Below, one piece after another: positions 14,292 to 43,280 of a DNA stretch of 53,846 nt (position 1 is the first letter of the stretch; every line of letters begins with the position of its first letter). This DNA is from Escherichia phage mEp554: sequence record PP180005, one strand, 5' to 3'. Both the position numbers and the translations under genes were made by a program. The notes under the pieces are model-generated. The model had not been told where the DNA came from and made no database searches. It saw only the letters and a list, made by a program, of their open reading frames with translations.

Positions 14292-14307
14292 TGTGATTGC
14301 GATCACA
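14292..14307. promoter_or_regulatory. Perfect CRP-consensus palindrome TGTGATTGCGATCACA
   Basis: TGTGA-N6-TCACA; intergenic; followed by TACAAAATGTATA motif (minus orientation) and a TGTGATCGCGA half-site. Confidence 0.4.
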
Positions 14308-14387
14308 TAGCTATACATTTTGTACTGTGATCGCGAATCCGTTTTGTAAACTGAAAGCAAAAGGTTTACGGTACGGAGGGAAATAAG

Positions 14388-14606
14388 ATGGCCCGCGAAT
14401 TAATGCTTTATTGTGTTGAGGGTGGAGTAGGTCACGATGCCTACGTCGCTGGGAAAGGCTATCCAGCCGATGAAGTGCTTTCTAATATGCACTTCCGGGA
14501 AAATGAAAGCCGGGTGTCTGTGTGGAAACGGTGCGTTGATGGTATTGAGGTTGTAAGCATCGAACGGTATTTAGGCACGTTTGATTACGGTGTTATTGAG
14601 GCTTAA
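14388..14606 (+). CDS. Hypothetical protein
   Basis: GGAGGG SD. Confidence 0.5.
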   Translation: MARELMLYCVEGGVGHDAYVAGKGYPADEVLSNMHFRENESRVSVWKRCVDGIEVVSIERYLGTFDYGVIEA

Positions 14607-14608
14607 TT

Positions 14609-14701
14609 ATGGACGACACATTGTTTTATATGTGCTGTTGCTGGGGTTTTATTGCCTTATGCCTGTTTATCAGGTGGTTTATTGAATACCATATGAGGTG
14701 A
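14609..14701 (+). CDS. Hydrophobic mini-protein (30 aa)
   Basis: MDDTLFYMCCCWGFIALCLFIRWFIEYHMR; GAGG SD. Confidence 0.35.
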   Translation: MDDTLFYMCCCWGFIALCLFIRWFIEYHMR

Positions 14702-14704
14702 TAT

Positions 14705-14899
14705 ATGAAAAAGGTTGGCGGTTATACGTTGCCTGATAACGCTAAATTGGCGGGAATTGGTTTTAGCGGCTGTTATTACTACAACAATGTAGGCGATATT
14801 TATTGCGTGCGTTTTGTCGATGGTGTACAGCATTTTCGCAGACTACCAGACATTGAATTGAGTAAACTTATCCGTGAGGTGTCATTACATGCGGTTTAA
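14705..14899 (+). CDS. Hypothetical protein
   Basis: ORF in operon. Confidence 0.45.
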   Translation: MKKVGGYTLPDNAKLAGIGFSGCYYYNNVGDIYCVRFVDGVQHFRRLPDIELSKLIREVSLHAV

Positions 14900-15092
14900 A
14901 CATTACAGAGAATGGAAGATTCCAGAATCAGCAACAAAGGCAGCGCCCGGAATATTTTCGGGCGTTTATTTTTATATGGAAGGTAAATGGTATTTCGGCA
15001 GCAGGCCGGATCACTATTATCAAGAAGTATGCAAATCTCACACATGGGACATTAAGGAGCGCGTGCAAGGCGGTGTAATAGACGAGGTTTAA
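14889..15092 (+). CDS. Hypothetical protein
   Basis: Start at MRFKHY with GAGGTG SD. Confidence 0.45.
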   Translation: MRFKHYREWKIPESATKAAPGIFSGVYFYMEGKWYFGSRPDHYYQEVCKSHTWDIKERVQGGVIDEV

Positions 15093-15093
15093 A

Positions 15094-15330
15094 ATGATTA
15101 ATGGTTTTTTAAGCTGGTTAAGAGTGTGGTTTTTTGCCACGCTTTTCGTTTTTTTGGCGTTCAGCGGTGTCATTGTCATATTTACGCTGGCGATGATGTT
15201 CATTACATGGTCAGTACCTGAATTTAACGACTTTGGAGCTATTATTGCCATCGCCCGCGCTTTATTGGCTGGTAGCGCATTTATTGGTTTTTGCTGGACT
15301 GTAGCGCCTGATTGGGGTGATGAATGGTGA
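15094..15330 (+). CDS. Hypothetical membrane protein (two hydrophobic segments)
   Basis: FFATLFVFLAFSGVIVIFTLAMMFI and AIIAIARALLAGSAFIGFCW stretches. Confidence 0.5.
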   Translation: MINGFLSWLRVWFFATLFVFLAFSGVIVIFTLAMMFITWSVPEFNDFGAIIAIARALLAGSAFIGFCWTVAPDWGDEW

Positions 15331-15334
15331 TCCT

Positions 15335-15568
15335 ATGGCTTTGTTCAATATGTCAGAACTGCAATTTAATGCCGTAAAAGCTGCCGCCCGCGCAGCGCTT
15401 TCTGCTTGCAAAGCTGAGGTAGAGAAAAACGGCTACAGCGATAAAGCCACGCGGCTGATATTAGATAAGCATTATCGCAAGGTCGCCCCGCTGATCAGCA
15501 TTGAGCGCTTTGTGTGGTTGGTGGGGTATTTAAACAACCGTTGGGGAACGGAACAGGATTATTTCTAA
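15335..15568 (+). CDS. Hypothetical protein
   Basis: Start uncertain (15320 or 15335). Confidence 0.4.
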   Translation: MALFNMSELQFNAVKAAARAALSACKAEVEKNGYSDKATRLILDKHYRKVAPLISIERFVWLVGYLNNRWGTEQDYF

Positions 15569-15581
15569 GGGGGGGGGCGTA

Positions 15582-16121
15582 ATGAAAAATGATTACGGCG
15601 GCAGCCATACGCCGAAAGAAATAAAAGACCTATGGCAAACGCCAAAACCAGTTTTTAGAGGAATGGATCGAGAATTCGAATTCGTCGCTGATGTGGCGGC
15701 AAACAAGGCAAACGCGCTAGTTCCGCGATATATAACCGAAGAAATGGACACGTTGCATTATCCGTGGGGAGCGGTGGCAATGCCTGGTGAATATGTCTGG
15801 ATGAATCCGCCATACTCAAACCCTGGTCCATTCGTTGATAAAGCGGCGCTCGAACATCAACTGAATCACATTGGTTGCGTAATGCTGTTGCCCGCTGACA
15901 TTTCTGTTAGCTGGTTCATGAACGGCGCGGAGACGGCAAACGAATGCAGATTAATAACGCGCGGGCGGCTGGCGTTTATCAATGCTGCGACTGGTAAGCC
16001 AGTGAGCGGAAACAATAAAGGGAGCTTGTTTTTGATCTGGCATCCACGATGCAGACATGAATGTATTTTTACACACATAACACGTAAAGAGCTATACGCA
16101 AGAGGTGCAGATAATGACTAG
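15582..16121 (+). CDS. Phage Dam-family DNA N6-adenine methyltransferase
   Basis: DLWQTPKPVF...YVWMNPPYS (NPPY catalytic motif) and overall length/pattern of phage Dam family. Confidence 0.8.
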   Translation: MKNDYGGSHTPKEIKDLWQTPKPVFRGMDREFEFVADVAANKANALVPRYITEEMDTLHYPWGAVAMPGEYVWMNPPYSNPGPFVDKAALEHQLNHIGCVMLLPADISVSWFMNGAETANECRLITRGRLAFINAATGKPVSGNNKGSLFLIWHPRCRHECIFTHITRKELYARGADND

Positions 16122-16611
16122 TGCGGCAGATTTACTACGAATCGCAGCGGAAACAATTGAGCAAAGAGGTAAACAAAACGGATACGACAGAAAAGAGGAA
16201 AAATCGGCGCCAAAAATAGCCACTATATATAACGCTAAGAAGGGCGCAAATTTAACCCCGCTTGATGTATGGGATCTGTTGATTTGTCTCAAGGAGGCGC
16301 GTTTAGAGGCCATTTTGGCTAATGGTAGCGATCCTGCTGACACTTTGGTTGACCTAATCAGCTACAACGCACTAAAAGCTGAGCAAATATTGAATGATCG
16401 GGATGAAGAGTTAAAGAAAAATCAGTTCACTGCCGCCAATATTAGCGATGGAATAATAAAAGATGCAGCAATAACAAGCTGTAAGGGCTTACCCCCTTCA
16501 ATGCTTAATCCTCAATGCGGTTGCATTTCAACTCGGCTTGATTTGAGTTTTGACAGATCTGAAGCTATTCGCGATAAGAGGTATGACCCAAATGAAAAAG
16601 GTGACAATTGA
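16114..16611 (+). CDS. Hypothetical protein
   Basis: AGAGGTG SD; between two methyltransferase genes. Confidence 0.5.
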   Translation: MTSAADLLRIAAETIEQRGKQNGYDRKEEKSAPKIATIYNAKKGANLTPLDVWDLLICLKEARLEAILANGSDPADTLVDLISYNALKAEQILNDRDEELKKNQFTAANISDGIIKDAAITSCKGLPPSMLNPQCGCISTRLDLSFDRSEAIRDKRYDPNEKGDN

Positions 16612-17095
16612 CAGGTTATTGGCCTGCGTTTATGTCGCCGTTTTCGTGATCATCAACCTTATTGTTAACCATTGCGGCCCGTGGGTAATTCCGATCACTA
16701 CGGTAGCCGCTGTGTGTGTCAATATGATGATCCGTGACTTCCTGTTATATGACGGCGGCTTGAAATGGTCGGCTACAACATGCGCCGCCGCTGGCGCAAT
16801 CACGGTGCTAATAAATTACGATGCAGGAATGGTAGCAATAGCGTCATTCGTCGCGGTTGTTTCCGGTGCGCTTATATCTGGCGGTGTTTACCGGGTTTTG
16901 CCTGGTGATTTCGATTCGAAACGCTGGCCTGCAAATATAGCTTCAGCCATCGGGGATGCGTTAATTTTCCCGACGCTATCGTTTATGGCGTTTATGCCGG
17001 AAATATCAGCGATGCAATTCATCTCAAAAATGGCAGCGGTGACGGTGATCACTATCATCATGCGCCGCTATTTCACGTTTGAGGGCAAAAAATGA
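16583..17095 (+). CDS. Multi-pass membrane protein, possibly DUF165/YhhQ-like transporter family (uncertain)
   Basis: At least four hydrophobic segments; ASFVAVVSGALISGGVYRV and SKRW motifs recalled as YhhQ-like; start uncertain. Confidence 0.45.
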   Translation: MTQMKKVTIDRLLACVYVAVFVIINLIVNHCGPWVIPITTVAAVCVNMMIRDFLLYDGGLKWSATTCAAAGAITVLINYDAGMVAIASFVAVVSGALISGGVYRVLPGDFDSKRWPANIASAIGDALIFPTLSFMAFMPEISAMQFISKMAAVTVITIIMRRYFTFEGKK

Positions 17096-17874
17096 GCAAG
17101 GCTAAACACTGGTTATATAATTGGCTAAGAAACTGGGTTGTGTGGTCGCTGTACGACGGCAGCGGGTACGCCGTTAAAGACTGGGCGGAAGCGGGATATA
17201 AGTGCTATTGCTTCAACTATGACGGCGCAAATCACGGCGATTATGAAGGCGTTAAAATCATTCATCCGAATATTGAATACGTTAACGTATGGATTGACAG
17301 TCACTTCCTGGTGATGTTCTCGCCTGACTTGTCAGTTTACCCAGAGCCTGACATTATCCTGGGCTTCCCGCCGTGCGACGATCTCGCCGTGTCTGGCGCT
17401 CGCTGGTTCGCTGACAAACGAAAAAAAGATCCTGACTTCCAGGTGAAGGCGGCGAATAGCGCAAAACTGGTAGAAAAACTGGCGGATATGCACAACGTGC
17501 CGTGGATGGTGGAAAATCCGGTGGGGGCACTGTCAACGCTATGGCGTAAACCGGATTTTATCTTCAATCCTTGCGCTTACGGTGGCTACCTGCCGGAAGA
17601 TGACAAACATCCTGCTTTCCCGGATGTTTACCCGGCGCGCGACGCGTATACAAAGAAAACTTGTATTTGGTGCGGTAACGGATTTAAGCAGCCGCTTTTC
17701 AGACCTGTAGATCTTAACTCTGGTGATAACCCGGGGTGGGCGAAAACAGGAGGCAGGACGAAACGAACAAAGATGATCCGCTCACTAACGCCGCGCGGCT
17801 TTGCCCGTGCTGTATTCCTGGCTAACGACCGGGCCATCAATCGTACTACGCTTAACCGTGTTTTGCCGGACTGA
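17092..17874 (+). CDS. DNA cytosine-5 methyltransferase-like protein (compact, 260 aa)
   Basis: Motif I-like LYDGSGY, motif IV-like GFPPC, motif VI ENPVG, motif IX/X-like RSLTPRGFARAV. Confidence 0.65.
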   Translation: MSKAKHWLYNWLRNWVVWSLYDGSGYAVKDWAEAGYKCYCFNYDGANHGDYEGVKIIHPNIEYVNVWIDSHFLVMFSPDLSVYPEPDIILGFPPCDDLAVSGARWFADKRKKDPDFQVKAANSAKLVEKLADMHNVPWMVENPVGALSTLWRKPDFIFNPCAYGGYLPEDDKHPAFPDVYPARDAYTKKTCIWCGNGFKQPLFRPVDLNSGDNPGWAKTGGRTKRTKMIRSLTPRGFARAVFLANDRAINRTTLNRVLPD

Positions 17875-17896
17875 AATTTACAAAATGGCGTCATTG

Positions 17897-17912
17897 CGTG
17901 ATGCGGATCACA
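17897..17912. promoter_or_regulatory. CRP-like palindrome CGTGATGCGGATCACA
   Basis: GTGA-N6-TCACA; centred about 60 bp upstream of predicted TSS of promoter CTTGTT-N17-TATACT (17929-17957). Confidence 0.35.
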
Positions 17913-18033
17913 TAATGGCGCTTTTTGTCTTGTTTGCATGTATCCATTTTGTATACTTCAAGCAAACAAAATGCTCTTTAAAAATCCGGCAGCGCTGAAA
18001 TGCGTAGAAATCACCTGAAAAGGAGAGAGCATT

Positions 18034-18210
18034 ATGCCTTTTGATAATTACCAATGGCATGACGACTATGAACGAGAGAGCGTTATGCGTGCAATGTGCA
18101 ATGTATGCAGCACGAAGAGAGGAGGCTGTAACGAGTGCAACGAATGCTTAGAACATTGGCTAAGGGCCGGACACGCCGAAAGGCTGAACGAAACAGAGAA
18201 TCAAAAATAA
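18034..18210 (+). CDS. Hypothetical Cys-rich small protein (58 aa)
   Basis: AGGAGAG SD; CNVCSTKRGGCNECNEC. Confidence 0.4.
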   Translation: MPFDNYQWHDDYERESVMRAMCNVCSTKRGGCNECNECLEHWLRAGHAERLNETENQK

Positions 18211-18224
18211 TCGGGGTGGTTTTT

Positions 18225-18830
18225 ATGCAAAACCCTAAAAAACCCATAAGACGCCGTTGCAAATGCTGCGGCGTTTTTTTTGAGCCTAAATACCATAATC
18301 AAACGTGGTGCAGTGATGAGTGTCTGGAAGAGCTGAAATTTGATCAGCTATGCCGCGACCGTGAGAAGGCTATGAAGGCTATGGAGCGGAAGAAACGCCG
18401 TGATAGCCAGCGTGAAGAACGCAACCGGAAGCGTAAACAGTTAAATCCGCGTAGTTATTGGATCAAACAAGTTCAAAATGTATTTAACGCCTATATTCGA
18501 GAACGTGACGCGCGCTTGCCGTGTATATCTTGCGGGACTTACTACGGTGAGCAATGCGGGTGGGATGCAGGCCATTACAGGACGGTAGCCGCCGCCGGAC
18601 ACCTTCGCTTCAACGAGGATAATTGCCATAAGCAATGTAGGCACTGCAACCAGACACTAGACGGCAACATCGGAGGGTATCGCCCGGCACTGATTCGAAA
18701 AATTGGCCTCGCCAGGGTGGTAGCTCTGGAGAACAACAACGAAACTCACAAATGGACGATTGCAGAATGTAAGGAGCTAATAAACATCTATCAGGCTAAA
18801 TTGGACGCCTTAAGGAGAAAGGCAGCATGA
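18225..18830 (+). CDS. ninG: NinG-family protein
   Basis: RRRCKCCGVFFEP...YWIKQVQNVFNAYIRERDARLPCISCG...WDAGHYR...LRFNEDNCHKQC closely resembles lambda NinG. Confidence 0.85.
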   Translation: MQNPKKPIRRRCKCCGVFFEPKYHNQTWCSDECLEELKFDQLCRDREKAMKAMERKKRRDSQREERNRKRKQLNPRSYWIKQVQNVFNAYIRERDARLPCISCGTYYGEQCGWDAGHYRTVAAAGHLRFNEDNCHKQCRHCNQTLDGNIGGYRPALIRKIGLARVVALENNNETHKWTIAECKELINIYQAKLDALRRKAA

Positions 18831-19234
18831 ACGAATATACATTTAGCCTACCTTACCCGCCATCGAATAATCGCTATTACCGACATTCGCGCGGTTTTCA
18901 CTATATCAGCAAAGTGGGGAAGGAATACAGGGAACAAGTAAGAGACATCATTGAGCTATTAAATTTAAATATTAACCTGCCTTGCCGACTGGCAATTGCA
19001 ATTTACGCCGCGCCGCCGGATAACCGGATCAGAGATCTGGATAATATCCCTAAATGCCTTTTTGATAGCCTTACTTATGCCGGATTCTGGATGGATGACG
19101 GGCAAATTGACTCAATAAAAATTGTCCGCTGCCGGAAGATAAAAGGCGGACGCTTGTTTATTAAGATCCGCGAACGCGGCGACCTACTACCGGATATTGA
19201 CGAATACGCGACTAATATGTGGGGTGAGCAATGA
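18827..19234 (+). CDS. rusA: RusA-family Holliday junction resolvase
   Basis: LPYPPSNNRYYRHSRG...RDLDNIPKCLFDSLTYAGFWMDDGQI matches RusA motifs. Confidence 0.85.
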   Translation: MNEYTFSLPYPPSNNRYYRHSRGFHYISKVGKEYREQVRDIIELLNLNINLPCRLAIAIYAAPPDNRIRDLDNIPKCLFDSLTYAGFWMDDGQIDSIKIVRCRKIKGGRLFIKIRERGDLLPDIDEYATNMWGEQ

Positions 19235-19413
19235 AAAACGAAATTAAAGATCTGCAAATAGATATTCAGCGCGATGAGCATGATTTAGCTACAGTCCGAC
19301 AAATCCAGGCTTTCCACATGAGAGAACTGCTTGCGCTGAAAGAGCTTGAAAGAAAGTTGGTCCAATCAATATCTGATCGTAAACGTCTGGTTGCTCGTTA
19401 CGGGGGCAAATAA
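19231..19413 (+). CDS. Hypothetical protein
   Basis: ORF in operon. Confidence 0.45.
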   Translation: MKNEIKDLQIDIQRDEHDLATVRQIQAFHMRELLALKELERKLVQSISDRKRLVARYGGK

Positions 19414-20135
19414 TGAATCTGGAATCAATTCTTAAATTCCACTTCCCAAAATCACCGCGTTTGTCAGATGAAAGCCGGGGCACGTCCCCGGATGCGCTTA
19501 ATACTACTGATGCACTAACTGCCGCAGGTATGGCGCAATCGCGCGTAGAGCTTGGTTATAGCGCTTTTTTGGGGAAGATGGAACTATCACAAGCCGAAAA
19601 GCATAAGGCCGTAGTTTTGCTTATAGAGCGTTTAAGGGCTATGGCAAAAGACTATGAATACGTTATGGAACTGGACGAGGCCAAACGCAATGATCTCATT
19701 ATTCTTGTTGCCGTTTTCGCATTTCGGGATTATTGCCAGAGTGCCGCGACGGAAAAAACTTGTATGGAGTGCGGCGGATATAAATTTACGTTTGACGAAT
19801 ACGGGGAAAAACACCTTTGTAAAAAATGCAAGGGGCATGGGACAGTTCGCAATCATTGTAAACAATGCAAGGGCCGTGGCGAAGTACCGGATAAAGCAGC
19901 CAGCGAAGCGGCGGAAATGCCAGTGTTCAAAACGTGCCAGCGCTGCGGCGGGCGCGGGTACTCGCGTTTCCCTGTAGATCTTGTCCGGCAGGCGGTTAAT
20001 CAGCTTGTTTTTCCGGTAAGCCGATCAACATGGTGGAAGAAATACCGGGCTTTCTATGAAGACGCCATTGCCGAATTGTTCAAAGAAGAGGCGCGGGCTG
20101 ACAACGAAATTAAACGAGTGACGCGGGGTGAATGA
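19413..20135 (+). CDS. Q-like late antiterminator (phage 82 type) with four CxxCxGxG zinc-finger repeats
   Basis: N-terminal MNLESILKFHF...SRGTSPDAL recalled as Q82-family; CMECGGYK, CKKCKGHG, CKQCKGRG, CQRCGGRG. Confidence 0.6.
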   Translation: MNLESILKFHFPKSPRLSDESRGTSPDALNTTDALTAAGMAQSRVELGYSAFLGKMELSQAEKHKAVVLLIERLRAMAKDYEYVMELDEAKRNDLIILVAVFAFRDYCQSAATEKTCMECGGYKFTFDEYGEKHLCKKCKGHGTVRNHCKQCKGRGEVPDKAASEAAEMPVFKTCQRCGGRGYSRFPVDLVRQAVNQLVFPVSRSTWWKKYRAFYEDAIAELFKEEARADNEIKRVTRGE

Positions 20136-20335
20136 TGGATAAGCTGGAAATAAACGATCAGTTTGCTGTTATCTTATTCGAAGATAAAACAGGCGGCGCA
20201 TGGTGTAAGAAAGTCACTGGTGCGGAAGCGCGTTTGGTTTTGGGTATGGCAAGCGCGTTAAACGAAGGCGAATTACCAGCCATACCTATTAAGCCAGTCA
20301 AAATATACAAACGGGGTGACGATGATGAAGCCTAA
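20132..20335 (+). CDS. Hypothetical protein
   Basis: ATGA overlap with Q stop. Confidence 0.45.
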   Translation: MMDKLEINDQFAVILFEDKTGGAWCKKVTGAEARLVLGMASALNEGELPAIPIKPVKIYKRGDDDEA

Positions 20336-20594
20336 ATTAAAAGAACATCTATTTGCAAAGCTGGTTAATGACCTGACATTATCCGCGCGGTTGTGCCGTG
20401 ATACACAACAATTGAGGGCGTGGATAGCAAGGGATTTAAGAAAATACATTGAGCCAGGCGGACCAGGCGACAAAATGACTATGGACGAGGCCATCAAGCG
20501 CCGTTCGGCTGATTGGTCAGTTAGTAACACAGGATTAACCGGATACATTGAAGGCTATAACGACTGTTTACAGGATCATAGCAATGAAAAGTAA
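20322..20594 (+). CDS. Hypothetical protein
   Basis: GGGGTG SD. Confidence 0.45.
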   Translation: MMKPKLKEHLFAKLVNDLTLSARLCRDTQQLRAWIARDLRKYIEPGGPGDKMTMDEAIKRRSADWSVSNTGLTGYIEGYNDCLQDHSNEK

Positions 20595-20796
20595 CCGCAA
20601 GCGCCTTGTAAGGGCGTATGACAAAGCATTAAAGGCTTTTGATGATCTGCGACACAACAAACGCCAGCGCCGTAAATGGGCGCGTATGCTTGTAAGGGAA
20701 TGGCATAGCGAGGAATATTTCCTTAATGCCAGGCACATGACTCAGGATGTAGCTGACATGTTAGCTGACGAGAACGTTTATTACATGATGTGGTGA
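20584..20796 (+). CDS. Hypothetical protein
   Basis: AGGAT SD. Confidence 0.45.
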   Translation: MKSNRKRLVRAYDKALKAFDDLRHNKRQRRKWARMLVREWHSEEYFLNARHMTQDVADMLADENVYYMMW

Positions 20797-22571: not shown

Positions 22572-22587
22572 TGTGATCTTTATCACA
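22572..22587. promoter_or_regulatory. Perfect CRP-consensus palindrome TGTGATCTTTATCACA
   Basis: TGTGA-N6-TCACA; centre about 60 bp upstream of predicted TSS of the 22605-22633 promoter. Confidence 0.4.
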
Positions 22588-22604
22588 ATGTATACAAAAT
22601 GGCA

Positions 22605-22633
22605 TTGTTTCGGCAGTGCCGTTTTGTTATATA
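22605..22633 (+). promoter_or_regulatory. Sigma70-like internal promoter
   Basis: TTGTTT, 17-nt spacer, TATATA; TATACAAAATGG motif directly upstream. Confidence 0.4.
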
Positions 22634-22666
22634 TAAGTCACTGAAAGACGAATGGAAGGTAAGAAG

Positions 22667-22792
22667 ATGAACGCTAACGCTAAATATCCGGCATGGGTCT
22701 TTGAACTATACGCCCGCTACTTTGAATTGCTGGCACCAGGTGAAGAAGCATTAAGCATTGACGAATACGCTGAGTGTTTAGGGTTCAAATGA
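22667..22792 (+). CDS. Hypothetical small protein (41 aa)
   Basis: GGAAGG SD. Confidence 0.35.
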   Translation: MNANAKYPAWVFELYARYFELLAPGEEALSIDEYAECLGFK

Positions 22793-22850
22793 GACAAAGA
22801 AGAATAAAACACGGGGCCGGATGGCCCAATCAAACCAGAAGGTTGCAATC

Positions 22851-23150
22851 ATGAAAAGCGATAAGTTCATAGCGTGCTGTTTTGTTGAAGTGCCTAAAGG
22901 TGATGTTTTCTGCAATTATGAATTTAAAGACAGTTTAGGCCGATCTCATGTTGTTGTTGGTAAGCGGGGCGATTGGTTATATATAACAGACGACGACATG
23001 ATTTTTACCAGAAATCAACTATTTCACATCAACTCATTAAATAATTATGCGCCAGTTGCCGCTATATCCATGATGGATCTTAAATCTAATATGTGGCTTG
23101 AAAAGGACACTGTGCATAAAGCGCGTAGCTTACCTAGTGCGGAGTTTTAA
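22851..23150 (+). CDS. Hypothetical protein
   Basis: GAAGG SD before MKSDKF. Confidence 0.45.
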   Translation: MKSDKFIACCFVEVPKGDVFCNYEFKDSLGRSHVVVGKRGDWLYITDDDMIFTRNQLFHINSLNNYAPVAAISMMDLKSNMWLEKDTVHKARSLPSAEF

Positions 23151-23152
23151 TT

Positions 23153-23407
23153 ATGGTTGTGATCAGACTATGGCGCGGTAATAGCCGATTTGATGGTAAA
23201 TATATCCGCGTAATTGAAGATGTTAATCGTGGTCGGTTTTATGAATTGGTATACAGCGAAAAAAGGGAGAAAGAATATCTGAACGAATCGATCCCTATGT
23301 GGCGTAAAGTGGCTGGCCTTGCCTTAATTCTGCGCCGCGGGTTTTATACAGATCACAACACACTAACAGATGCGGAACTAGTGACAATTCTTTACAAAGG
23401 AGAATAA
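23153..23407 (+). CDS. Hypothetical protein
   Basis: ORF in operon. Confidence 0.45.
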   Translation: MVVIRLWRGNSRFDGKYIRVIEDVNRGRFYELVYSEKREKEYLNESIPMWRKVAGLALILRRGFYTDHNTLTDAELVTILYKGE

Positions 23408-23410
23408 CAA

Positions 23411-23734
23411 ATGTCTAAATTTATCAGCGTTAATGTTTTCCGTGGCAATTTTCCAGAAGATAAAGAAATTGGACAATTCGCAGGTGAACGTGGCGTATGT
23501 TTCCGTGTAGCTACTGAAGACGATGCGCACGTTAAATGCTTTCACGTATCTGAACCGCCTTTTAATGCAGACCATCTTGAAGACCTGAATAGAATTAAAA
23601 GCCTTATTTTTGCCTATCTGGCGTTCCCTGGCATAGCTGATGCTGATGTGGAATTGGTTGGGGCCGAACTGGTGGCAGAATACAAAATGACTGAAGGCGA
23701 AAACGGAGGGGTGGAAATTGAGCGCATCAAATAA
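23411..23734 (+). CDS. Hypothetical protein
   Basis: AAGGAG SD. Confidence 0.5.
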   Translation: MSKFISVNVFRGNFPEDKEIGQFAGERGVCFRVATEDDAHVKCFHVSEPPFNADHLEDLNRIKSLIFAYLAFPGIADADVELVGAELVAEYKMTEGENGGVEIERIK

Positions 23735-23972
23735 ACCTTACAAAATCCGTTGTAAAGGCGAATATCCTGGTTTTACGATTGGTTGCGAATACATGGGCCA
23801 CATTGGGTACGGCCCTTTCGGTGAATTAGGAATGAATACGCTGGACGACGACGGCGACAGCAGGACGCTTGATCTCGATTCTGATGATTTCGAATACATC
23901 CCGCCAGTGACTTGCCGCGTCGTTGATGAGTTCCTGGCTGAACATGAAGACGATGAGGATGATTATGATTGA
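23718..23972 (+). CDS. Hypothetical acidic protein
   Basis: TTG start with GGAGGGG SD; C-terminal EHEDDEDDYD. Confidence 0.4.
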   Translation: MSASNKPYKIRCKGEYPGFTIGCEYMGHIGYGPFGELGMNTLDDDGDSRTLDLDSDDFEYIPPVTCRVVDEFLAEHEDDEDDYD

Positions 23973-24159
23973 ATGCCTTATTGCTGTGACTGTTTTGCTT
24001 TATATCGCTGGCGCGATCTTGATGTCATGTTTTATTAAGGTTAGTGAGGCTGACCGTTGCGGATTTGAGATCCCTTTTTGGCCTGTATTGGTTTTTCTCG
24101 CTTTCTTTGATGCTACGGTAGTGCAGATCAAACAAGCTATTAAGGAGCGCAAAAAATGA
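23965..24159 (+). CDS. Small membrane protein (two hydrophobic segments)
   Basis: MIECLIAVTVLLYIAGAILMSCFI...FWPVLVFLAFF; GAGGA SD. Confidence 0.45.
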   Translation: MIECLIAVTVLLYIAGAILMSCFIKVSEADRCGFEIPFWPVLVFLAFFDATVVQIKQAIKERKK

Positions 24160-24338
24160 TTGAAGACGGCATCTATGGTGTAAACCAGATGGAAAACGTT
24201 TTTTACATGGTTGACGGCGATACCGTAACAATCAGCGTAGATGGTGGGGAATACGCAGAGCCATTCTTCAAAACAACAAGGGAAGACATTAAGCGAAGCG
24301 TTGATAAAGGCATACTATTTAAGGTTGGCGAGCTATGA
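24156..24338 (+). CDS. Hypothetical protein
   Basis: GGAG SD; N-terminal MIEDGIYG shared with next ORF. Confidence 0.45.
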   Translation: MIEDGIYGVNQMENVFYMVDGDTVTISVDGGEYAEPFFKTTREDIKRSVDKGILFKVGEL

Positions 24339-24511
24339 ACGAGATCGAAGACGGCATCTATTTGCACATGTTATTTAACATCGCCTATTTGGTTAAAGGT
24401 GATAAGGTGATGATTCAGAATCCAGAAAGTAAATGCTGGGAATCAAGCATGATGGATCGTTGGCACATGCAAATGCTACTTGATAATAACCTGATATACA
24501 GAAAGCAGTAA
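24335..24511 (+). CDS. Hypothetical protein, N-terminal paralog of preceding ORF
   Basis: MNEIEDGIYLH versus MIEDGIYGV. Confidence 0.4.
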   Translation: MNEIEDGIYLHMLFNIAYLVKGDKVMIQNPESKCWESSMMDRWHMQMLLDNNLIYRKQ

Positions 24512-24548: not shown

Positions 24549-24576
24549 ATTACCTAACAATGCGAAACTGTAACTA

Positions 24577-24598
24577 CCCGGCCCCGTGCCGGGTTTTT
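24577..24598 (+). terminator. Rho-independent terminator about 30 nt downstream of the candidate late promoter (tR'-like)
   Basis: CCCGGC-CCCGT-GCCGGG hairpin followed by TTTTT. Confidence 0.6.
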
Positions 24599-36881: not shown

Positions 36882-37562
36882 ATGATTCACGTTCGAACAG
36901 GACAGTTTGCGGTTGTGGTTGATGGCAGACGTTACGAATTTAATCCCTGCTTTGCTGCAATGGCTAAGATCGGCAGTGACAGGGAACTGGTCGAATATTT
37001 CGCAACGGTTCACGGCGGCAGATACCCACGACGTTTGCCAATGGATACAGACCTCCGCAATCGCATTCTGGCGCGTTGTTATGGTGGACTGGTGCAAACG
37101 TCCATCCACATATTGAAATGTTGCTCAGAATGCGAAATAGGCCAGTTATTGGGCGAATGTAGCTTTACTCCTTCGGGTAAGTTGAGACTGAAACCTGGAT
37201 TGATGCCCACCAGCGACGTTATCACACTTGCGCAGCACTGCATGTTTCACGGTTTAATTGGTGACGGTCCAGAAGAAGACACGGGCGAAAACCAGGATGG
37301 CGAGTACAAGCCCACATTCGACATCCTTGAGTATGTTTATTCTGCCGTTGCTCACCTGGGATTGTCTGAGTCTGAAGCGTGGGGCATGACAATGACCGGA
37401 TACAGGGCCGCAGTACGCGCTAAAACGCCGCCAGACGAAAGAAACGAGAAACGTAAGCCAAACGTTCAGATAAATAAACGTGATTATGATGAGCAAATGG
37501 AGGCCGCTAAGAGGGTGCTGGAATTGATGAAAAAACGCGAGCAAGAAAAAGCCCGGAATTAA
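36882..37562 (+). CDS. Tail assembly chaperone (G/GT-like)
   Basis: Position between major tail and tape measure; start at MIHVRTGQ; no obvious slippery site seen. Confidence 0.5.
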   Translation: MIHVRTGQFAVVVDGRRYEFNPCFAAMAKIGSDRELVEYFATVHGGRYPRRLPMDTDLRNRILARCYGGLVQTSIHILKCCSECEIGQLLGECSFTPSGKLRLKPGLMPTSDVITLAQHCMFHGLIGDGPEEDTGENQDGEYKPTFDILEYVYSAVAHLGLSESEAWGMTMTGYRAAVRAKTPPDERNEKRKPNVQINKRDYDEQMEAAKRVLELMKKREQEKARN

Positions 37563-37578
37563 CCGGGCCTTTATCTTT
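37551..37578. terminator. Bidirectional rho-independent terminator
   Basis: GCCCGG-AATTAA-CCGGGC hairpin flanked by A5 upstream and CTTTATCTTT downstream; ends both the chaperone gene (+) and the convergent minus-strand moron. Confidence 0.65.
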
Positions 37579-37891
37579 ACTTGTATGCTGCGAATCGGCA
37601 TCTTGCTTCATCCAGGTCATGAACATCGTACACGTTATCGTAAATGTAAGTTGCTACCTGTGCTTTCTGTACGTCAGTTGCGTTCGGGAACTCCATGCTT
37701 ACGAAAGTCACTGCATCAACGTAGTGTTTGAACATCTTTTTGTTAACGCACAGTGCGTAAATCAATACGGCAGGCCAGCAAATCAGCGCGCCAAAGAATG
37801 CCATGAGCATATTCAGATGTTTTTTCTGAGCTACAACCATAGTTGCGACGAATCCGATGAAGCAAATTACCAGTTCCATGATGCACCCCAT
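37577..37891 (-). CDS. Membrane protein (two TM segments), opposite-strand moron
   Basis: MELVICFIGFVATMVVAQ...LMAFFGALICWPAVLIYALCV then soluble C-terminal domain. Confidence 0.55.
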   Translation of the reverse strand: MGCIMELVICFIGFVATMVVAQKKHLNMLMAFFGALICWPAVLIYALCVNKKMFKHYVDAVTFVSMEFPNATDVQKAQVATYIYDNVYDVHDLDEARCRFAAYK

Positions 37892-37998
37892 TAATTACGT
37901 TTATCTTCGGTTGTCATTGCCAGCACTAGCACAGCCATCACATTAAATGCTAACCATGCTGTAATATATACATCTATAACCGTTTTGATTGTGTCCAT
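37891..37998 (-). CDS. Single-helix hydrophobic mini-protein (35 aa), moron
   Basis: MDTIKTVIDVYITAWLAFNVMAVLVLAMTTEDKRN; stop overlaps next start. Confidence 0.4.
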   Translation of the reverse strand: MDTIKTVIDVYITAWLAFNVMAVLVLAMTTEDKRN

Positions 37999-38011
37999 TT
38001 ACCCGCCACGC

Positions 38012-38098
38012 TTATTTCTTGTTTTTAAGTGCTTTCAACATTTTTTCGATGAAATCGGCATAACGCTCATGCTCGTTTGGTCGGTAGTAGTTTTTCAT
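38012..38098 (-). CDS. Small basic protein (28 aa), first gene of minus-strand moron
   Basis: MKNYYRPNEHERYADFIEKMLKALKNKK; GAGGA SD. Confidence 0.3.
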   Translation of the reverse strand: MKNYYRPNEHERYADFIEKMLKALKNKK

Positions 38099-38176
38099 TT
38101 TCTTATCCTCTTTTGCTTCCTCCGGTTAATCCGGCCTTCTAAATCCCTTTACTCTATCCCTTTCCTTTAGCCTCTT

Positions 38177-38218
38177 TATACAAAATGTATTCGTTGAAGT
38201 GAAGCCATTTTGTATAAA
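38177..38218. promoter_or_regulatory. Divergent promoter pair built on back-to-back TATACAAAATG motifs
   Basis: Plus: TCGTTG-N16-TATAAA (38191-38218); minus: TTCACT-N17-TATAAA; each -10 lies inside the partner motif. Confidence 0.4.
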
Positions 38219-38255
38219 ATAGAGATCAGGATCACACTTTTTACGAGGTTAAATC

Positions 38256-40604
38256 ATGGCTACCAGTTTAGGTACAATTTATTACGAAGTTGATGCAAAA
38301 ACTGGTCAACTTCTAGTCGCTCAGAGACAGGCGGACCAGGCTTTTGACAGTATCGAGCGTGGCGCAAAACGCGCTGACCGCCAGGTGAACACGCTTAAGA
38401 CTTCAATCAAAGCACTATCCAGGGTCATTCATCTGTTACTTGCTGCGGAGGCTGTGCGCCAGTTTATTGACATGGCGGAGCAAGCAAAAATGCTTCGCGT
38501 AAAAATCAAATTGCTTACAGGTGAAGCGGAGGCAACGGAACGCGTTTTCAACAGACTGAAAGAAATATCAAAAGAAACAGGGCAAAGCCTCAAGGATACT
38601 GGCGACCTGTGGCAAGGGCTTGCTATATCGCTAAAAAACACATCCGCTACTGAAGGCCAGGTCCTCAACCTGGTTAGCACGCTGCAAAAACTCGGCAACC
38701 TGGGCGGCGTGTCTGCGGAACAACTATCAAACTCCATGCGCCAGTTCCGCCAGGCTATTGATGCTGGCGTGTTGCAGGCTGAAGAATTTAACTCAATCCG
38801 TGACAACACCCCAACAATCATACAGGAAATGGCACGCCAAATGGGGTTGTCTATGGGGCAGTTCCGCGCTGAAATGCTGGACGGCAAGATCACGGCTGAA
38901 AGGATGCTCAACGCGATCCAGGCCGCCACGCAGGAAACGAACGAGAAGTTCGCACAGTTGCCGCGCACATCCGGCATGGCCTTCAACGAGCTTAAAGTTG
39001 AGGTTATGGGACTTGTCGAACAGCTAGACGATCTTTTCGGCATATCAGATGGCGTTGTGTCGGCAATAGACTTAATCACTGGTGGCGTTGAGGGATTAGG
39101 TAAAGGCGCAAAATTCGCCGCAACATGTTTCAATACACTAAAAACGGCTGGCAGCGAATTTATCGACATGTTTGATGATGTTGCTGTTAAGGCTGGCGAG
39201 GTGGCGGAAGAGATTATCAGGATGGTAACGCCAATCAAGGCGCTAATGGATGGCTACAAATGGATGAAGGAAATCATTGACAAGCGCAAGGAAGAGCTAA
39301 ATAGCAACAACGAGAAGAAATTTGGCCCTACAGTTGGTAAGGTCATGACGTTTGCAAACGACATTAAAAACGCAACTGCCGCCTATGATGAGTTCATGGA
39401 GAAACAGGGTGAGGCTGACGATGGTAAGATCACGGGATTCGATCAGCCAGTTGGTAAACCGAAAAAAGGTAAAAAGGGCAAAAAAGACAAGAAATCTGAA
39501 GCTGATCGGCTTGGTGATGAAGGTATAAAAGTCTCTGACCAGTACAACAAAGACGCCGCCGCTATGCGTAAAGCACTGGAGAACGGCAAGGCCATTGACG
39601 CCGCATTTGCCCAGGGAAAAATAACCCTCCTTGAGTACAAGGCCGCGCAGAAAGGTATAGGCAAGGAACTGAAGGACGAATTGGCGCAAATCCCTGTTGA
39701 TGAGCTACGCGACAAATGGGACCACATAGTTAGCCCAATGGACCAGCTTAAGGGCGAAATTGACCCAATCAAACAGGCGCAAAATGAATGGGCCGTAAGA
39801 AAGCAAATGCTATTGGACCTGGGCGCTACAGAGGCGCAACAGAGACAGGCGCAATTGGAATACGAACAACAGATCCGGGATCTGAAGTGGGAGCAATGGC
39901 AGGCGCAAAGCGAAACAAACGGACTGATCGGCGCTTGCGTCAGCGGCCTGAAAGGTGGCATGGGCAATGCCCTTACAGGACTGTTAAACGGTACTCAATC
40001 ATTAAGCGAGGTTTTTGCCAACCTGGGAAGTAGCATACTTAACACCGTTGGCAACAAACTATCAGAAATTGCCGCTAACTGGATAGCAGATCAGTTAATG
40101 ATGGAAACACAAAGCAAGGCCACGCAAGCAAGTACCACGGCAGGCGCGGTAGCGGCACAAGGCCAGATTGCAGCGGCGGCGGCCCCGGCAGCGGCGGCTA
40201 CGGCTGCGTCAACTGGTGGTAGCTGGGCGGCGGCTGGTGCTGCGGCGCTTTCTGCGATCATGTCGCTGGCAACGTCAATCTTTGGTGGCGGGCGTTATAA
40301 TGGTGGTTCTGTTAATGGTGGTAGCCTGTATCGAGTAGGGGAACACGGAATACCTGAGCTATTCCAGACGAGCAACGGGCGTCAGTATATGATTCCTGGC
40401 GAAAATGGTAGGGTAATTCCTGGCCGCGATCTCTTCAATGGTGGCGGCATCAATATGCCTGTGCAAATCACAGTTCAGACCACAAACGGATTTAGCGACG
40501 AAGATAGCCGCAGACTTGAGCAGACGATGGAGCGCGTAGCAATGAAAATGATGGCAAGGGAATCGCAACGACCGGGAGGAATGTTGCAACCGCGCCGCAA
40601 ATAA
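38256..40604 (+). CDS. Tail tape measure protein
   Basis: 782 aa, alpha-helical, Ala/Gly-rich C-terminal segment; position. Confidence 0.85.
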   Translation: MATSLGTIYYEVDAKTGQLLVAQRQADQAFDSIERGAKRADRQVNTLKTSIKALSRVIHLLLAAEAVRQFIDMAEQAKMLRVKIKLLTGEAEATERVFNRLKEISKETGQSLKDTGDLWQGLAISLKNTSATEGQVLNLVSTLQKLGNLGGVSAEQLSNSMRQFRQAIDAGVLQAEEFNSIRDNTPTIIQEMARQMGLSMGQFRAEMLDGKITAERMLNAIQAATQETNEKFAQLPRTSGMAFNELKVEVMGLVEQLDDLFGISDGVVSAIDLITGGVEGLGKGAKFAATCFNTLKTAGSEFIDMFDDVAVKAGEVAEEIIRMVTPIKALMDGYKWMKEIIDKRKEELNSNNEKKFGPTVGKVMTFANDIKNATAAYDEFMEKQGEADDGKITGFDQPVGKPKKGKKGKKDKKSEADRLGDEGIKVSDQYNKDAAAMRKALENGKAIDAAFAQGKITLLEYKAAQKGIGKELKDELAQIPVDELRDKWDHIVSPMDQLKGEIDPIKQAQNEWAVRKQMLLDLGATEAQQRQAQLEYEQQIRDLKWEQWQAQSETNGLIGACVSGLKGGMGNALTGLLNGTQSLSEVFANLGSSILNTVGNKLSEIAANWIADQLMMETQSKATQASTTAGAVAAQGQIAAAAAPAAAATAASTGGSWAAAGAAALSAIMSLATSIFGGGRYNGGSVNGGSLYRVGEHGIPELFQTSNGRQYMIPGENGRVIPGRDLFNGGGINMPVQITVQTTNGFSDEDSRRLEQTMERVAMKMMARESQRPGGMLQPRRK

Positions 40605-40610
40605 ACAAAA

Positions 40611-40638
40611 CCCCGGTACAATGCCGGGGTTATCTTTT
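40611..40638 (+). terminator. Rho-independent terminator after tape measure gene
   Basis: CCCCGG-TACAATG-CCGGGG hairpin plus TTATCTTTT. Confidence 0.6.
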
Positions 40639-40913
40639 AGTTATTCTCAAATCTTGTATATCCTCTCTCAATTTTCCCTCCGTGTACACTTCTGGCAAAT
40701 ACCGCGTCAGTATACCTGAAAAATGGACATGTATATGTATCCCCTTTGCTATCCATATATTTTAGCACCCATGCCATACGTTTTACATTGCTTTTATTTG
40801 CCGGGTTTTTCATTTTATTTTCCTCCGCAAATCACAACCTGCCGTTTCTTGCTATGTAGCTGCGAGCAAACATCACCTGCCAGATGTTCCAGATCTCCCG
40901 CCACGTAAATTCA

Positions 40914-41063
40914 TCATCTTCCATATCTCACACCATCGCGCTTGTATGGTTCGCCATCAGCAAACGGGATTAACTCATCGTTTGCCACCATTCGATTGAA
41001 CCAGTCTTTCAGAGCAACCAGGGAGAACCGGATCCCGTAACTGTGCAATTCGCGCCACCTCAT
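40914..41063 (-). CDS. Hypothetical small protein (49 aa), third gene of minus-strand cassette
   Basis: ATGA overlap with upstream stop. Confidence 0.3.
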   Translation of the reverse strand: MRWRELHSYGIRFSLVALKDWFNRMVANDELIPFADGEPYKRDGVRYGR

Positions 41064-41314
41064 TTATGTGCCCCTTTCACTCCACAATGTCGGTTGTATT
41101 CAAGGTGGTCAATAATTAGCCAAACCTTCAAATCTTCACTGAACAGCCGCCAATCAGGGTTTATGTCCATCTTGTAACCGTAACCATCGCGTAACTTTTT
41201 GGGGTAAACCTCTTTTTTAAGAAAAGCATCAAGTAATTGTTTTCCTTTCTTGATGATCCGTTCTTGGGCGTTTTTCTGTGCTTTCAGGTTTTTGCCAATC
41301 ATTACCAATTTCAT
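41060..41314 (-). CDS. RelE/HigB-superfamily toxin-like protein (tentative)
   Basis: GYGYKMDINPDWRLFSEDLKVWLIIDH resembles the conserved core of RelE/ParE/HigB-fold toxins; lysine-rich N-terminus. Confidence 0.4.
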   Translation of the reverse strand: MKLVMIGKNLKAQKNAQERIIKKGKQLLDAFLKKEVYPKKLRDGYGYKMDINPDWRLFSEDLKVWLIIDHLEYNRHCGVKGAHK

Positions 41315-41334
41315 AACTCACCCCACGCAATCAA

Positions 41335-41490
41335 TCAGTTGACCACTTTCAGGAAGAAATCACGGTATTCATCTTCTTTTGCATTCATCATGAATTGACC
41401 GTATTTGAACGCATCATCAAAACCCTTCACAATCGCAACTTCCACCTGTTCGAATGCTTTGTTTAGCATTACCACTACATAGCGTTCCAT
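41335..41490 (-). CDS. Hypothetical small protein (51 aa), first gene of cassette (antitoxin candidate)
   Basis: AAGGGGG SD before MERYVVVML. Confidence 0.35.
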   Translation of the reverse strand: MERYVVVMLNKAFEQVEVAIVKGFDDAFKYGQFMMNAKEDEYRDFFLKVVN

Positions 41491-41659
41491 ATTGGCCCCC
41501 TTTGTTGGTACTGCTTTCTCTTCTTGCTTTCTGTATACATCTTGTTGCGTCCTGTGTGAAGCCATTTCGTAAACTGGGTATAATTCTTGTGACGAAGTTC
41601 TCATTTTTCGCGTAGAAGCGCGTAAAGATGTATGCAATATGTAACTTATAGGGGGAATC

Positions 41660-42013
41660 ATGCCGGAAGTTTTCAGATGGACGCCGCAAAGAAGCTACAG
41701 CGTGACCAGGGAACCAAATGTGTCGGTCGTTAAACTTGGTGATGGTTATGAACAGCGCCAGGCGAAAGGGATTAACACGTTGCTTGATAGCTACACCCTG
41801 GTTTTTAAAGGCAGTAGCGCAGGATGCGGTGATAGTGGGAACGTGGCGATCCAGGCAGAAGCATTCTTGAGGGCGCGCGGCGCTGTCGAGGCTTTTTACT
41901 GGTCGCCGTCTATGGATGGTGTGCAAAGGCTTTTTGTTTGCCGTAGCTGGAGTATGACAAAGGACGGGCCTGTATACACGCTAAACGCAACATTTGAGCA
42001 AGTTGTTGGCTAG
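41660..42013 (+). CDS. Minor tail protein M
   Basis: 117 aa; lambda gpM-like size, position and recalled sequence character. Confidence 0.7.
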   Translation: MPEVFRWTPQRSYSVTREPNVSVVKLGDGYEQRQAKGINTLLDSYTLVFKGSSAGCGDSGNVAIQAEAFLRARGAVEAFYWSPSMDGVQRLFVCRSWSMTKDGPVYTLNATFEQVVG

Positions 42014-42024
42014 TGGGGGTTAAT

Positions 42025-42210
42025 ATGTACGGGACTTGTGTAGTTGACAAAACTGACGCATTTACATTATTTGACGACTATGAGATCAACGACCTTACTG
42101 TAAAGGCTGACAATGGCGATACATGGTATCTTCATGATGTTGGTGACGGGTATGTGGGATGCAGATCCAGGGAAGGCAAGGAGGTTTTATTTTTGGTTGA
42201 TGGCGTGTAA
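42025..42210 (+). CDS. Hypothetical small protein
   Basis: GGGGG SD; inserted between M and L. Confidence 0.4.
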   Translation: MYGTCVVDKTDAFTLFDDYEINDLTVKADNGDTWYLHDVGDGYVGCRSREGKEVLFLVDGV

Positions 42211-42216
42211 TAACAA

Positions 42217-42240
42217 CCCCGCTTCGTGCGGGGTTTTCTT
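42217..42240. terminator. Bidirectional rho-independent terminator, copy 1 of duplicated module
   Basis: CCCCGC-TTCGT-GCGGGG hairpin with T-run; 37/38 nt shared with 50715-50751. Confidence 0.65.
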
Positions 42241-42241
42241 G

Positions 42242-42379
42242 TTAGTAGTGAATATACAGCAAACTCATTGGGTGAGCGTGCGCCATATTATTGGCTATCG
42301 CCGCCCAGTCCCAATCTGCAGCATGAGCGCCAAATACTATCAGTCCCATTATTATTAGCGCCAAAACTTCTATTTTCAT
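42242..42379 (-). CDS. Small secreted protein with signal peptide (45 aa)
   Basis: MKIEVLALIIMGLIVFGAHA then ADWDWAAIANNMAHAHPMSLLYIHY. Confidence 0.4.
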   Translation of the reverse strand: MKIEVLALIIMGLIVFGAHAADWDWAAIANNMAHAHPMSLLYIHY

Positions 42380-42389
42380 AATCTGTCAC

Positions 42390-42638
42390 CTATAAGTTAT
42401 CACGCAGATAATTAACGCCCTTATCAGTGACGAATGAATGATTAACCTGGTTTTCATCCGTCATAATGATGAATAACTTTTCTTGTAGGTACTTAGCTTT
42501 CGGGTACAACGTTAAACAAACCTGATACAAAATCCCGCGCTCAATCAGCAAATCAATAAATTCGTGTTCATGATAACCGATGATGCGGGCGGCCTGTTTC
42601 AACGTGTACACATAATCACCGTGATTGCGCCGCCCCAT
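42390..42638 (-). CDS. Small DNA-binding-like protein (KilA-C-like HTH, tentative)
   Basis: YTLKQAARIIGYHEHEFIDLLIERGIL resembles KilA-C segment of the antirepressor at 6482-7225. Confidence 0.45.
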   Translation of the reverse strand: MGRRNHGDYVYTLKQAARIIGYHEHEFIDLLIERGILYQVCLTLYPKAKYLQEKLFIIMTDENQVNHSFVTDKGVNYLRDNL

Positions 42639-42647
42639 GCTGCCGCC

Positions 42648-42998
42648 TTATTTATCGAATGCGCTCAGGTTATCGATGCAGAAGTCTTTCGCAGCTTTTT
42701 CGTATTCGCGTTTTGCTTGCGGATTGTCTGCCGGGAAACCTTTTGCGTGTATTTCACCAGGGCAAGCCTGATCCATAGAATCTGCAAAGTTAACATTGGC
42801 GTTGAAGTTAATATCTTTCGGGTTCATCTCTTCCACCTTATCCGGCACTTGTACAGGAATAACATAATAATCACGAGCATTAGACCAACAGCGGAGCAAT
42901 TCGCAACCTTCATTGCGCGCTGATTCGAATGTGTCAAATAGTCCCATGCTTTCCCATTCACATTTATCAGTCCACACGTCTAATCTGTATTTTTTCAT
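42648..42998 (-). CDS. Hypothetical protein
   Basis: ORF in minus-strand moron operon; start uncertain. Confidence 0.45.
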   Translation of the reverse strand: MKKYRLDVWTDKCEWESMGLFDTFESARNEGCELLRCWSNARDYYVIPVQVPDKVEEMNPKDINFNANVNFADSMDQACPGEIHAKGFPADNPQAKREYEKAAKDFCIDNLSAFDK

Positions 42999-43170
42999 TT
43001 TTTGCTACAACCTCCCATTTGACAGGTTCGATCCTGTACCCCAAAACGCGTTCGTCTTCAGCGAGTAAGAGCGCGTCGGTAAGTGCCTCGCCTTCATCTT
43101 TATACAGGGCCACAGTCATTTTCCTGCCATCCGCAAGGAACACCGTCAACCTCCACACCTTATCATCCAT
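42967..43170 (-). CDS. Hypothetical protein, first gene of moron operon
   Basis: GGAGGTG SD before MDDKVWRL. Confidence 0.45.
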   Translation of the reverse strand: MDDKVWRLTVFLADGRKMTVALYKDEGEALTDALLLAEDERVLGYRIEPVKWEVVAKNEKIQIRRVD

Positions 43171-43216
43171 TTCACACCTCCGCGCCATTTTGTTAATCAT
43201 GCTTCCTTTTGAGTAC

Positions 43217-43245
43217 AATATACATACTGTAAAAAACGCGATCAA
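43217..43245 (-). promoter_or_regulatory. Sigma70-like promoter for minus-strand moron operon
   Basis: Minus strand TTGATC-N17-TATATT. Confidence 0.4.
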
Positions 43246-43264
43246 CCGTTTTGGTATGATTTAG

Positions 43265-43280
43265 CGTGATGGCGATCACA
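43265..43280. promoter_or_regulatory. CRP-like palindrome CGTGATGGCGATCACA
   Basis: GTGA-N6-TCACA centred about 62 bp upstream of predicted minus-strand TSS; 19 nt upstream of L start. Confidence 0.35.

Follow-up and report, generated by a model that had tools for sequence, protein, structure and literature searches.

The 53,846 nucleotide (nt) record PP180005 from Escherichia phage mEp554, called the window here over its whole length, represents by its sequence the whole or nearly the whole genome of a temperate coliphage from the mEp021 (mEpimmI) group. Compared over the window it is about 91% identical to mEp021, mEp010, mEp013, mEp044, mEp515 and MagusPhagus. These phages are Nus-dependent and non-lambdoid, come from human faeces and encode a CI-like repressor, the N-like antiterminator Gp17 and a Q-like protein along with three nut sites; in one human faecal sample collection mEpimmI phages were about as common as lambdoid phages (PMC11893012). 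Of 5,426 complete E. coli genomes 35 carry a related prophage, and no carrier turned up among the well-studied E. coli strains for which transcription-start maps may exist. The window contains a series of palindromes that resemble binding sites of the host regulator CRP with cyclic AMP (cAMP) and lie 5' of predicted promoters of early genes and of morons (units of promoter, gene and terminator within a late operon). The sites are named PL (9113), E (14292), D (17897), A (22572), B (38221), C (43265) and, for a possible seventh, F (51109).

Five of the palindromes had been located in a first-pass annotation of the sequence, all with correct coordinates. Measured against the 22 base pair (bp) CRP site, with its two-fold symmetry, TGTGA-N6-TCACA core and A/T flanks, TGTGATTGCGATCACA at 14292-14307 (E) and TGTGATCTTTATCACA at 22572-22587 (A) have perfect cores, and CGTGATGCGGATCACA at 17897-17912 (D), CGTGATGGCGATCACA at 43265-43280 (C) and TGTGACTTGCATCAAA at 9113-9128 (PL) have one mismatch each. 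To these are added here a site with its own predicted promoter at 38221-38236 (B), a half-site at 51109-51124 (F) and a promoter-like element 3' of E. The palindromes read GTGAT-N4-ATCAC and not TTGAT-N4-ATCAA as in an FNR site, and the half-site consensus across them, WWWTGTGATCT, equals that of the CRP optimum, AAATGTGATCT.

Perfect cores number two in the window against 0.07 expected, a count that none of 100 shuffles reached. GTGA-N6-TCAC is found six times against 0.68 expected, and four of the six copies have the longer form GTGAT-N4-ATCAC. Two of them, at 17039 and 46630, were rejected as sites and are attributed to chance because both are intragenic and the first is not conserved in relatives. 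When two mismatches are allowed the enrichment disappears (28 found, 24 expected), so that a handful of sites close to the consensus make up the signal. The window was also scored with a CRP matrix that is symmetrised and approximate, having been trained on 16 classic sites of which lac alone was verified. By this measure the sites stand at or above the median of the classic CRP sites (13.5 bits): the top six hits are all intergenic and are A (17.7 bits), D (16.8), PL (15.6), B (14.3), C (14.1) and E (13.9). Hits of at least 14 bits number five against 0.3 expected.

The six sites are placed almost identically with respect to predicted promoters. At PL the core (9128-9113, minus strand) is followed after 18 nt by TTGATC (9094-9089), a 16-nt spacer and TAAACT (9072-9067), which together form the predicted promoter 9067-9094. 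The gap is 17 nt at each of the next four sites. The core of E (14292-14307, plus) precedes the promoter-like element 14325-14352, with CTGTGA, a 16-nt spacer and TAAACT; that of D (17897-17912, plus) precedes TTGTTT-N16-TATACT at 17930-17957; that of A (22572-22587, plus) precedes TTGTTT-N17-TATATA at 22605-22633, which has TG at -15/-14; and that of B (38236-38221, minus) precedes TTCACT-N17-TATAAA at 38203-38175. At C the core (43280-43265, minus) lies 19 nt (20 nt in most relatives) from TTGATC-N17-TATATT at 43245-43217, the predicted promoter of the M-L moron operon. The promoters at A, D and C had already been read by the first-pass annotation and are present in the sequence. With the start assumed 7 nt past each predicted -10 hexamer, the sites are centred at -59.5 to -62.5 (PL at about -60.5), and all six gaps contain an A4 or T4 tract centred near -42. 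In class I promoters CRP is centred near -61.5, or at -71.5, -82.5 or -92.5 on the same face of the helix as at lac P1, and the C-terminal domain of the RNA polymerase alpha subunit sits near -42. In lac P1 17 nt lie between the CRP core and TTTACA; the lac sequence used here is 100% identical in E. coli C600 and J53, both K-12 derivatives. Of the three class I spacings read in the first-pass annotation, those at A and D agree, on the predicted hexamers, with the gap of lac P1, and the one at the M-L moron site lies 2-3 bp beyond the lac optimum.

The core promoters behind the sites are weak, their -35 hexamers having three or four matches of six, as against five of six at PR (TTGACT-N17-TATATT, 9926-9954). 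PR, the main rightward promoter, is alone in lacking such a site and has instead its strong -35 and an A/T-rich block at the position where the palindrome would be. At four of the seven sites the 10-mer RTTYTGTWWA, which covers the -10, starts 33-34 nt from the core on the gene side, for which random sites give a probability of 0.0012; palindrome and promoter are hence physically coupled.

A further recurrent element in the same regions is the 9-mer ACAAAAYGG, of which the window holds 15 copies against 1.6 expected, among them 5332-5340, 9916-9924, 17880-17888 and 22594-22602, and on the minus strand 14339-14347, 17944-17952, 22619-22627 and 38205-38213. In one orientation it stands just 5' of the -35 at PR, A, B and C; inverted (CCRTTTTGTAWAMW) it spans the -10 of PL, E, D, A and B and of a possible promoter before the helicase gene. 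It is better conserved than the -35 hexamers. The element may combine an A-tract for the alpha subunit with -10 context, or may be the site of some other factor.

Conservation was followed in 136 IMG/VR loci surrounding the genes for the cytosine methyltransferase and for L, together with the GenBank record of mEp021 (MH706966), with 17-44 related contigs per site. In 1.49 Mb of mEpimmI sequence the matrix gives 251 hits of 12 bits or more, and 223 of these are at positions orthologous to the seven sites. The site is found at PL in 40 of 40 loci (at least 14.5 bits) and at D in 44 of 44 (at least 15.4 bits), at C in 42 loci (13.1-17.5 bits), at F in 26, at B in 24 (12.5-16.0 bits), at A in 24 and at E, the least conserved, in 17 of 45 (at least 12 bits). 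More distant phages that share the methyltransferase or the L protein have no hit of at least 14 bits in 660 kb, so this comparison cannot separate a host binder from a phage binder. Across the promoters A-E the two arms have a nucleotide diversity of 0.075 and 0.13 and the four central bases one of 0.37; further on, the values are 0.19 for the 5' part of the spacer, 0.04 for the eight bases that precede the -10 and 0.06 for the -10 itself. Such a pattern is the mark of a protein that binds as a dimer and is indifferent to the central bases, together with that of a promoter. In A and B the TGTGATC(T) arm alone is conserved in relatives, as is the case at many natural CRP sites. This fits a protein half-site and excludes a required hairpin.

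The PL site, which reads TTTGATGCAAGTCACA on the minus strand, is assigned to the predicted leftward early promoter PL, which would serve a winged-helix gene and the replication genes, and not to the repressor gene, because the minus-strand hexamers are conserved and the nutL boxA (8988-8980) lies downstream. In relatives the -35 TTGAYC and CCATTYTGTAAACT are kept while the spacer varies. A promoter for the repressor gene (TTAACA-N17-TACATT, 9083-9111), which would place the palindrome at +1, was considered and rejected, its -35 not being conserved whereas the PL hexamers are. The arrangement also differs from that of a CI/Cro-type operator, as PR has no palindrome and the PL site lies at about -60, off the core promoter. 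Around the predicted PL start there are dyads of the type CTTG-N4-CAAG at 9030-9045 (CTTGCATCATTGCAAG), 9057-9068 and 9117-9126, which are candidate operators of the CI-like repressor; the operators of this repressor are not described in PMC11893012. The 9-mer CTTGCATCA of the PL site recurs in the palindrome CTTGCATCATTGCAAG at 9030-9045. The winged-helix gene 8602-8847 (minus), which occupies the Cro position and immediately precedes the replication gene, is a hotspot of mosaicism in a group that is otherwise about 90% identical.

Site E lies 3 nt past the stop of the gene 13668-14288, and its variants in relatives include GTAAT, GATTACA and GATCATA. The -35 of its promoter-like element, CTGTGA in mEp554, is TTGTGA in most relatives, and CCGTTTTG precedes.

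Across relatives the arms of site D are invariant and its centre is hypervariable. The site occupies the apex of a 49-nt hairpin (17880-17928, plus strand; -24 kcal/mol, z-score -4.8) that follows directly on the cytosine methyltransferase gene and is itself followed by UUUUUGU. It corresponds to TERM_4, or t4, at 20087-20120 of mEp021 (MH706966), which is listed as a predicted and not a demonstrated terminator (PMC11893012). The stem-loop and U-run of an intrinsic terminator are thus present at D, with a U-run that is degenerate in relatives, and absent from the other five sites. The predicted promoter 17930-17957 comes next and then, at 17973-17981, the boxA GCTCTTTAA of nutR2, which had been placed downstream of the cytosine methyltransferase gene (PMC11893012). 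With hairpin, promoter and nutR2 adjoining, D appears to belong to a module of terminator, promoter and nut site whose hairpin has the activator-type site as its tip, and it very likely has a second role in an RNA hairpin or terminator. The boxA sequence is present in three copies in all, at 8980-8988 (minus), 9997-10005 and 17973-17981, each shortly 3' of a predicted promoter (PL, PR and that behind D), so that nutR2 may be supplied by a promoter of its own in addition to read-through.

Site A, with its flanks AAATGTGATCTTTATCACAATG, is the best match in the window. Its left half, (T/C)GTGATCT, is kept in relatives and its right half is degenerate in many. The predicted promoter behind it would drive eight small genes (22652-24511) 5' of the lysis cassette. 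Near the end of this segment, TTGGCA-N16-GATAAT at 24460-24487 is followed about 90 nt on by a strong terminator hairpin (24576-24594) that immediately precedes the holin gene. The pair resembles the Q-dependent late promoter and its terminator, the latter presumably being t5, which has been demonstrated in mEp021.

Sites B and C lie in the tail region on the minus strand. B reads TGTGATCCTGATCTCT and matches the consensus in its TGTGATC half alone, and this left arm shows zero diversity across 22 sequence variants. Its predicted promoter would drive 38098-38014 and 37891-37577 inside the tail operon, and a terminator-like hairpin at 37551-37568 ends the unit. C reads TGTGATCGCCATCACG, with arms that are conserved and a centre that varies, and the genes of its unit belong to PHROG families of unknown function or, in one case, encode an 82-aa KilAC/ANT-like protein. 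Families of unknown function also make up most of the genes behind A, B, C and E taken together. The units of B and C and the lipoprotein gene adjacent to F are typical morons, being inserted in the tail operon on the opposite strand and provided with terminator-like hairpins. A second opposite-strand block (40637-41661), between the tape-measure gene and M, includes an 84-aa protein (41060-41314, minus) with a ParE-like toxin domain (PF24732, E = 8e-12).

The possible seventh site F (minus strand) reads TGTGATCTTTGTTGCA and lies 5' of the lipoprotein-like moron gene 50992-50744. It scores 12.0 bits here and up to 17.0 (TGTGATCTGTGTTACA) in relatives, and no clear -35/-10 pair was found at class I distance from it. 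A separate element, the perfect FNR-type box TTGATATAAATCAA at 51069-51082, which is the only one in the window, lies 26 nt 3' of F on the minus strand and is kept as TTGATCTATATCAA or TTGATTTATATCAA in most relatives that have F. GATATT occurs 22 nt past the box; the positions that follow from it would be near -41.5 for FNR and near -82.5 for the CRP-type site.

Observed directly are the sites with their enrichment, constant geometry and pattern of conservation; from these we infer CRP as the putative binder, activation as its effect and the predicted positions of the starts. It is proposed, and we consider it probable, that CRP-cAMP would act as a class I activator of PL, of two internal early promoters and of three or four moron promoters. 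With a CRP-cAMP dimer bound at about -60 in contact with it, the C-terminal domain of the alpha subunit would settle on the A4/T4 tract near -42 and so aid the polymerase at promoters with a weak -35. The early promoters activated in this manner would be PL, for the replication genes, and the rightward internal promoters 14325-14352 and 17930-17957, the latter immediately 5' of nutR2 and of the genes for NinG, the resolvase and Q. Further targets would be the promoter 22605-22633 of the eight small genes, the minus-strand moron promoters 38203-38175 and 43245-43217 and, with the seventh site, the lipoprotein moron 3' of J. The catabolite control of internal early and moron promoters that the first-pass annotation had suggested agrees with the computed evidence, which would extend it to more sites and correct it at the PL site, the D hairpin and the M-L spacing. 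The more inclusive reading, in which nearly all promoters but PR would be wired to host cAMP-CRP by a common module and D would double as a terminator hairpin, is a tentative one.

Several observations weigh against CRP as the binder throughout. The PL site is invariant even in its centre, unlike the other sites, and has a 9-mer in common with a candidate repressor operator, which means that it may also belong to the operator of the repressor. More than half of the relatives have lost site E, C is 2-3 bp off the lac optimum, and the hairpin explains D equally well. The matrix, with its 16 training sites, is approximate, and the starts are predicted from hexamers with 7-9 matches of 12 in total. 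In addition, positions 9-10 of the half-site (TGTGATC) are under tighter constraint than they are in the average CRP site, and this could point to a different binder or to selection on the GATC sequence. The other binder could be a regulator encoded by the phage, as the first-pass annotation had allowed, in which case the palindromes would be that protein's own regulon and their likeness to CRP sites incidental. The restriction of the sites to the mEp021 group and the constraint over seven bases of the half-site are in line with this, and the first gene of the PL operon (81 aa, minus strand, ATG at 8847, end at 8602) has a weak match to the Crp-like helix-turn-helix family PF13545 (E = 0.001; 19.4 bits, below the 27-bit cut-off). 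That winged-helix protein, at the position of gp14, was nevertheless rejected as the common binder, since its recognition helix is not constant although the sites are: it occurs as at least four divergent alleles, with recognition helices SLRDTISALHQL, PVHTVHDAFAAL, PLHTTVDALNSL and PVNTVMVAIDGL, in phages that keep identical sites. Its family has almost no relatives outside the group, and none with a solved structure was found. The CI-like repressor is conserved but must act at PR, where there is no such palindrome, and no other conserved DNA-binding candidate was named by Pfam among about 30 window proteins scanned, many small proteins having no known family. Some other phage binder thus remains as a rival, though an unlikely one.

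RNA hairpins acting as terminators, processing sites or stabilisers are a credible account of D only, where the strength of the fold and the U-run agree with the annotated TERM_4 and where two T-G/G-T positions would pair as G-U in plus-strand RNA only. Even there the T-run is poorly conserved, mEp021 having GCGCTATTCACC. The other five sites fold with -1.4 to -4.8 kcal/mol, no better than shuffles, and have no U-runs; A and B with their one unconserved arm do not maintain a hairpin, the window has no match to Rfam families, and hairpins would leave the constant distance to the -10 boxes unexplained. As a general explanation hairpins are therefore distinctly improbable. For Dam methylation biology, such as methylation-sensitive switches or SeqA acting at GATC, it can be said that at least one GATC lies inside an arm at the sites other than PL, that GATC (249 found, 174 +/- 13 expected) and TGTGATC (16 copies, 6.3 expected) are over-represented in the window and that the phage encodes an N6-adenine methyltransferase in addition to the cytosine methyltransferase. 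The conservation, however, reaches into TGTG outside GATC, and the motif is missing from the PL site. The CRP optimum TGTGATCTAGATCACA itself contains GATC, whose presence thus follows from high-affinity sites, and we know of no Dam-dependent regulator that uses such a layout; this explanation is held to be very improbable. An equally small chance is given to random matches or passive copies of one duplicated promoter cassette without regulatory role. The promoter hexamers are moderate matches, and promoter-like sites are no commoner in the window than in shuffled sequence. The enrichment, the conserved arms around a free centre and the unrelated sequence between conserved blocks nonetheless speak against both chance and simple duplication. 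CRP is preferred to all four of these explanations as the probable binder.

The closest known likeness to the proposed CRP-dependent promoters is lac P1 as a class I promoter, with which they have in common the 16-bp core TGTGA-N6-TCACA with A/T flanks, the 17-nt gap at four sites, a weak -35 and A/T-rich DNA between site and -35. They differ from it in belonging to a phage genome, in occurring at six or seven promoters at once and in the fusion of one site to a terminator hairpin, and the phage sites are nearer to the consensus than that of lac (TGTGAT-N4-ATCACA). The units 38203-37551 and 43245-42215 and the lipoprotein gene 3' of J resemble the morons of lambdoid phages, except that their promoters have the same upstream activator-type site as the early promoters, of which to our knowledge no case has been described. 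Like the late promoters of P2, 186 and P4, which are activated by Ogr, B or Delta through a TGT-N12-ACA dyad near -55 (TGTTGT-N8-ACAACA), several of the phage promoters have a dyad 5' of the -35 and would be activated via the alpha subunit. In contrast to those promoters the dyad here is TGT-N10-ACA near -60.5, the sequence is CRP-like and the promoters are early and moron promoters rather than late ones. No Ogr-type protein was named by Pfam among the roughly 30 proteins scanned, which were mostly those of the early region and the moron genes. In mEp021 itself the palindrome of D lies inside the annotated TERM_4 with nutR2 next to it, and its published description gives a predicted terminator and nut site only, without the promoter-like element or the CRP-type site (PMC11893012; MH706966). 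Neither CRP nor any phage promoter is mentioned in the paper that describes the group (PMC11893012), and a search for literature on promoters or CRP in the mEp021 group, CRP-cAMP binding included, found nothing.

An influence of cAMP and CRP on lysogeny has been known for decades in lambda and P22, and few phage promoters under direct CRP control are known to us. What makes the present case interesting is how many promoters are concerned, that PL and the nutR2 promoter are among them and that it is directly testable in the mEp021 system. If the sites do not function as proposed, they would be no more than well-conserved upstream promoter elements. If they do, replication, the progress to late genes and the expression of accessory genes by the prophage would follow the carbon status of the host, and the mEpimmI phages would sense the catabolite state directly at the promoters for replication, the Q segment and the accessory genes. 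The set of sites would then provide a working promoter map for mEp021 and a simple link from the nutrients of the gut to phage development and moron expression.

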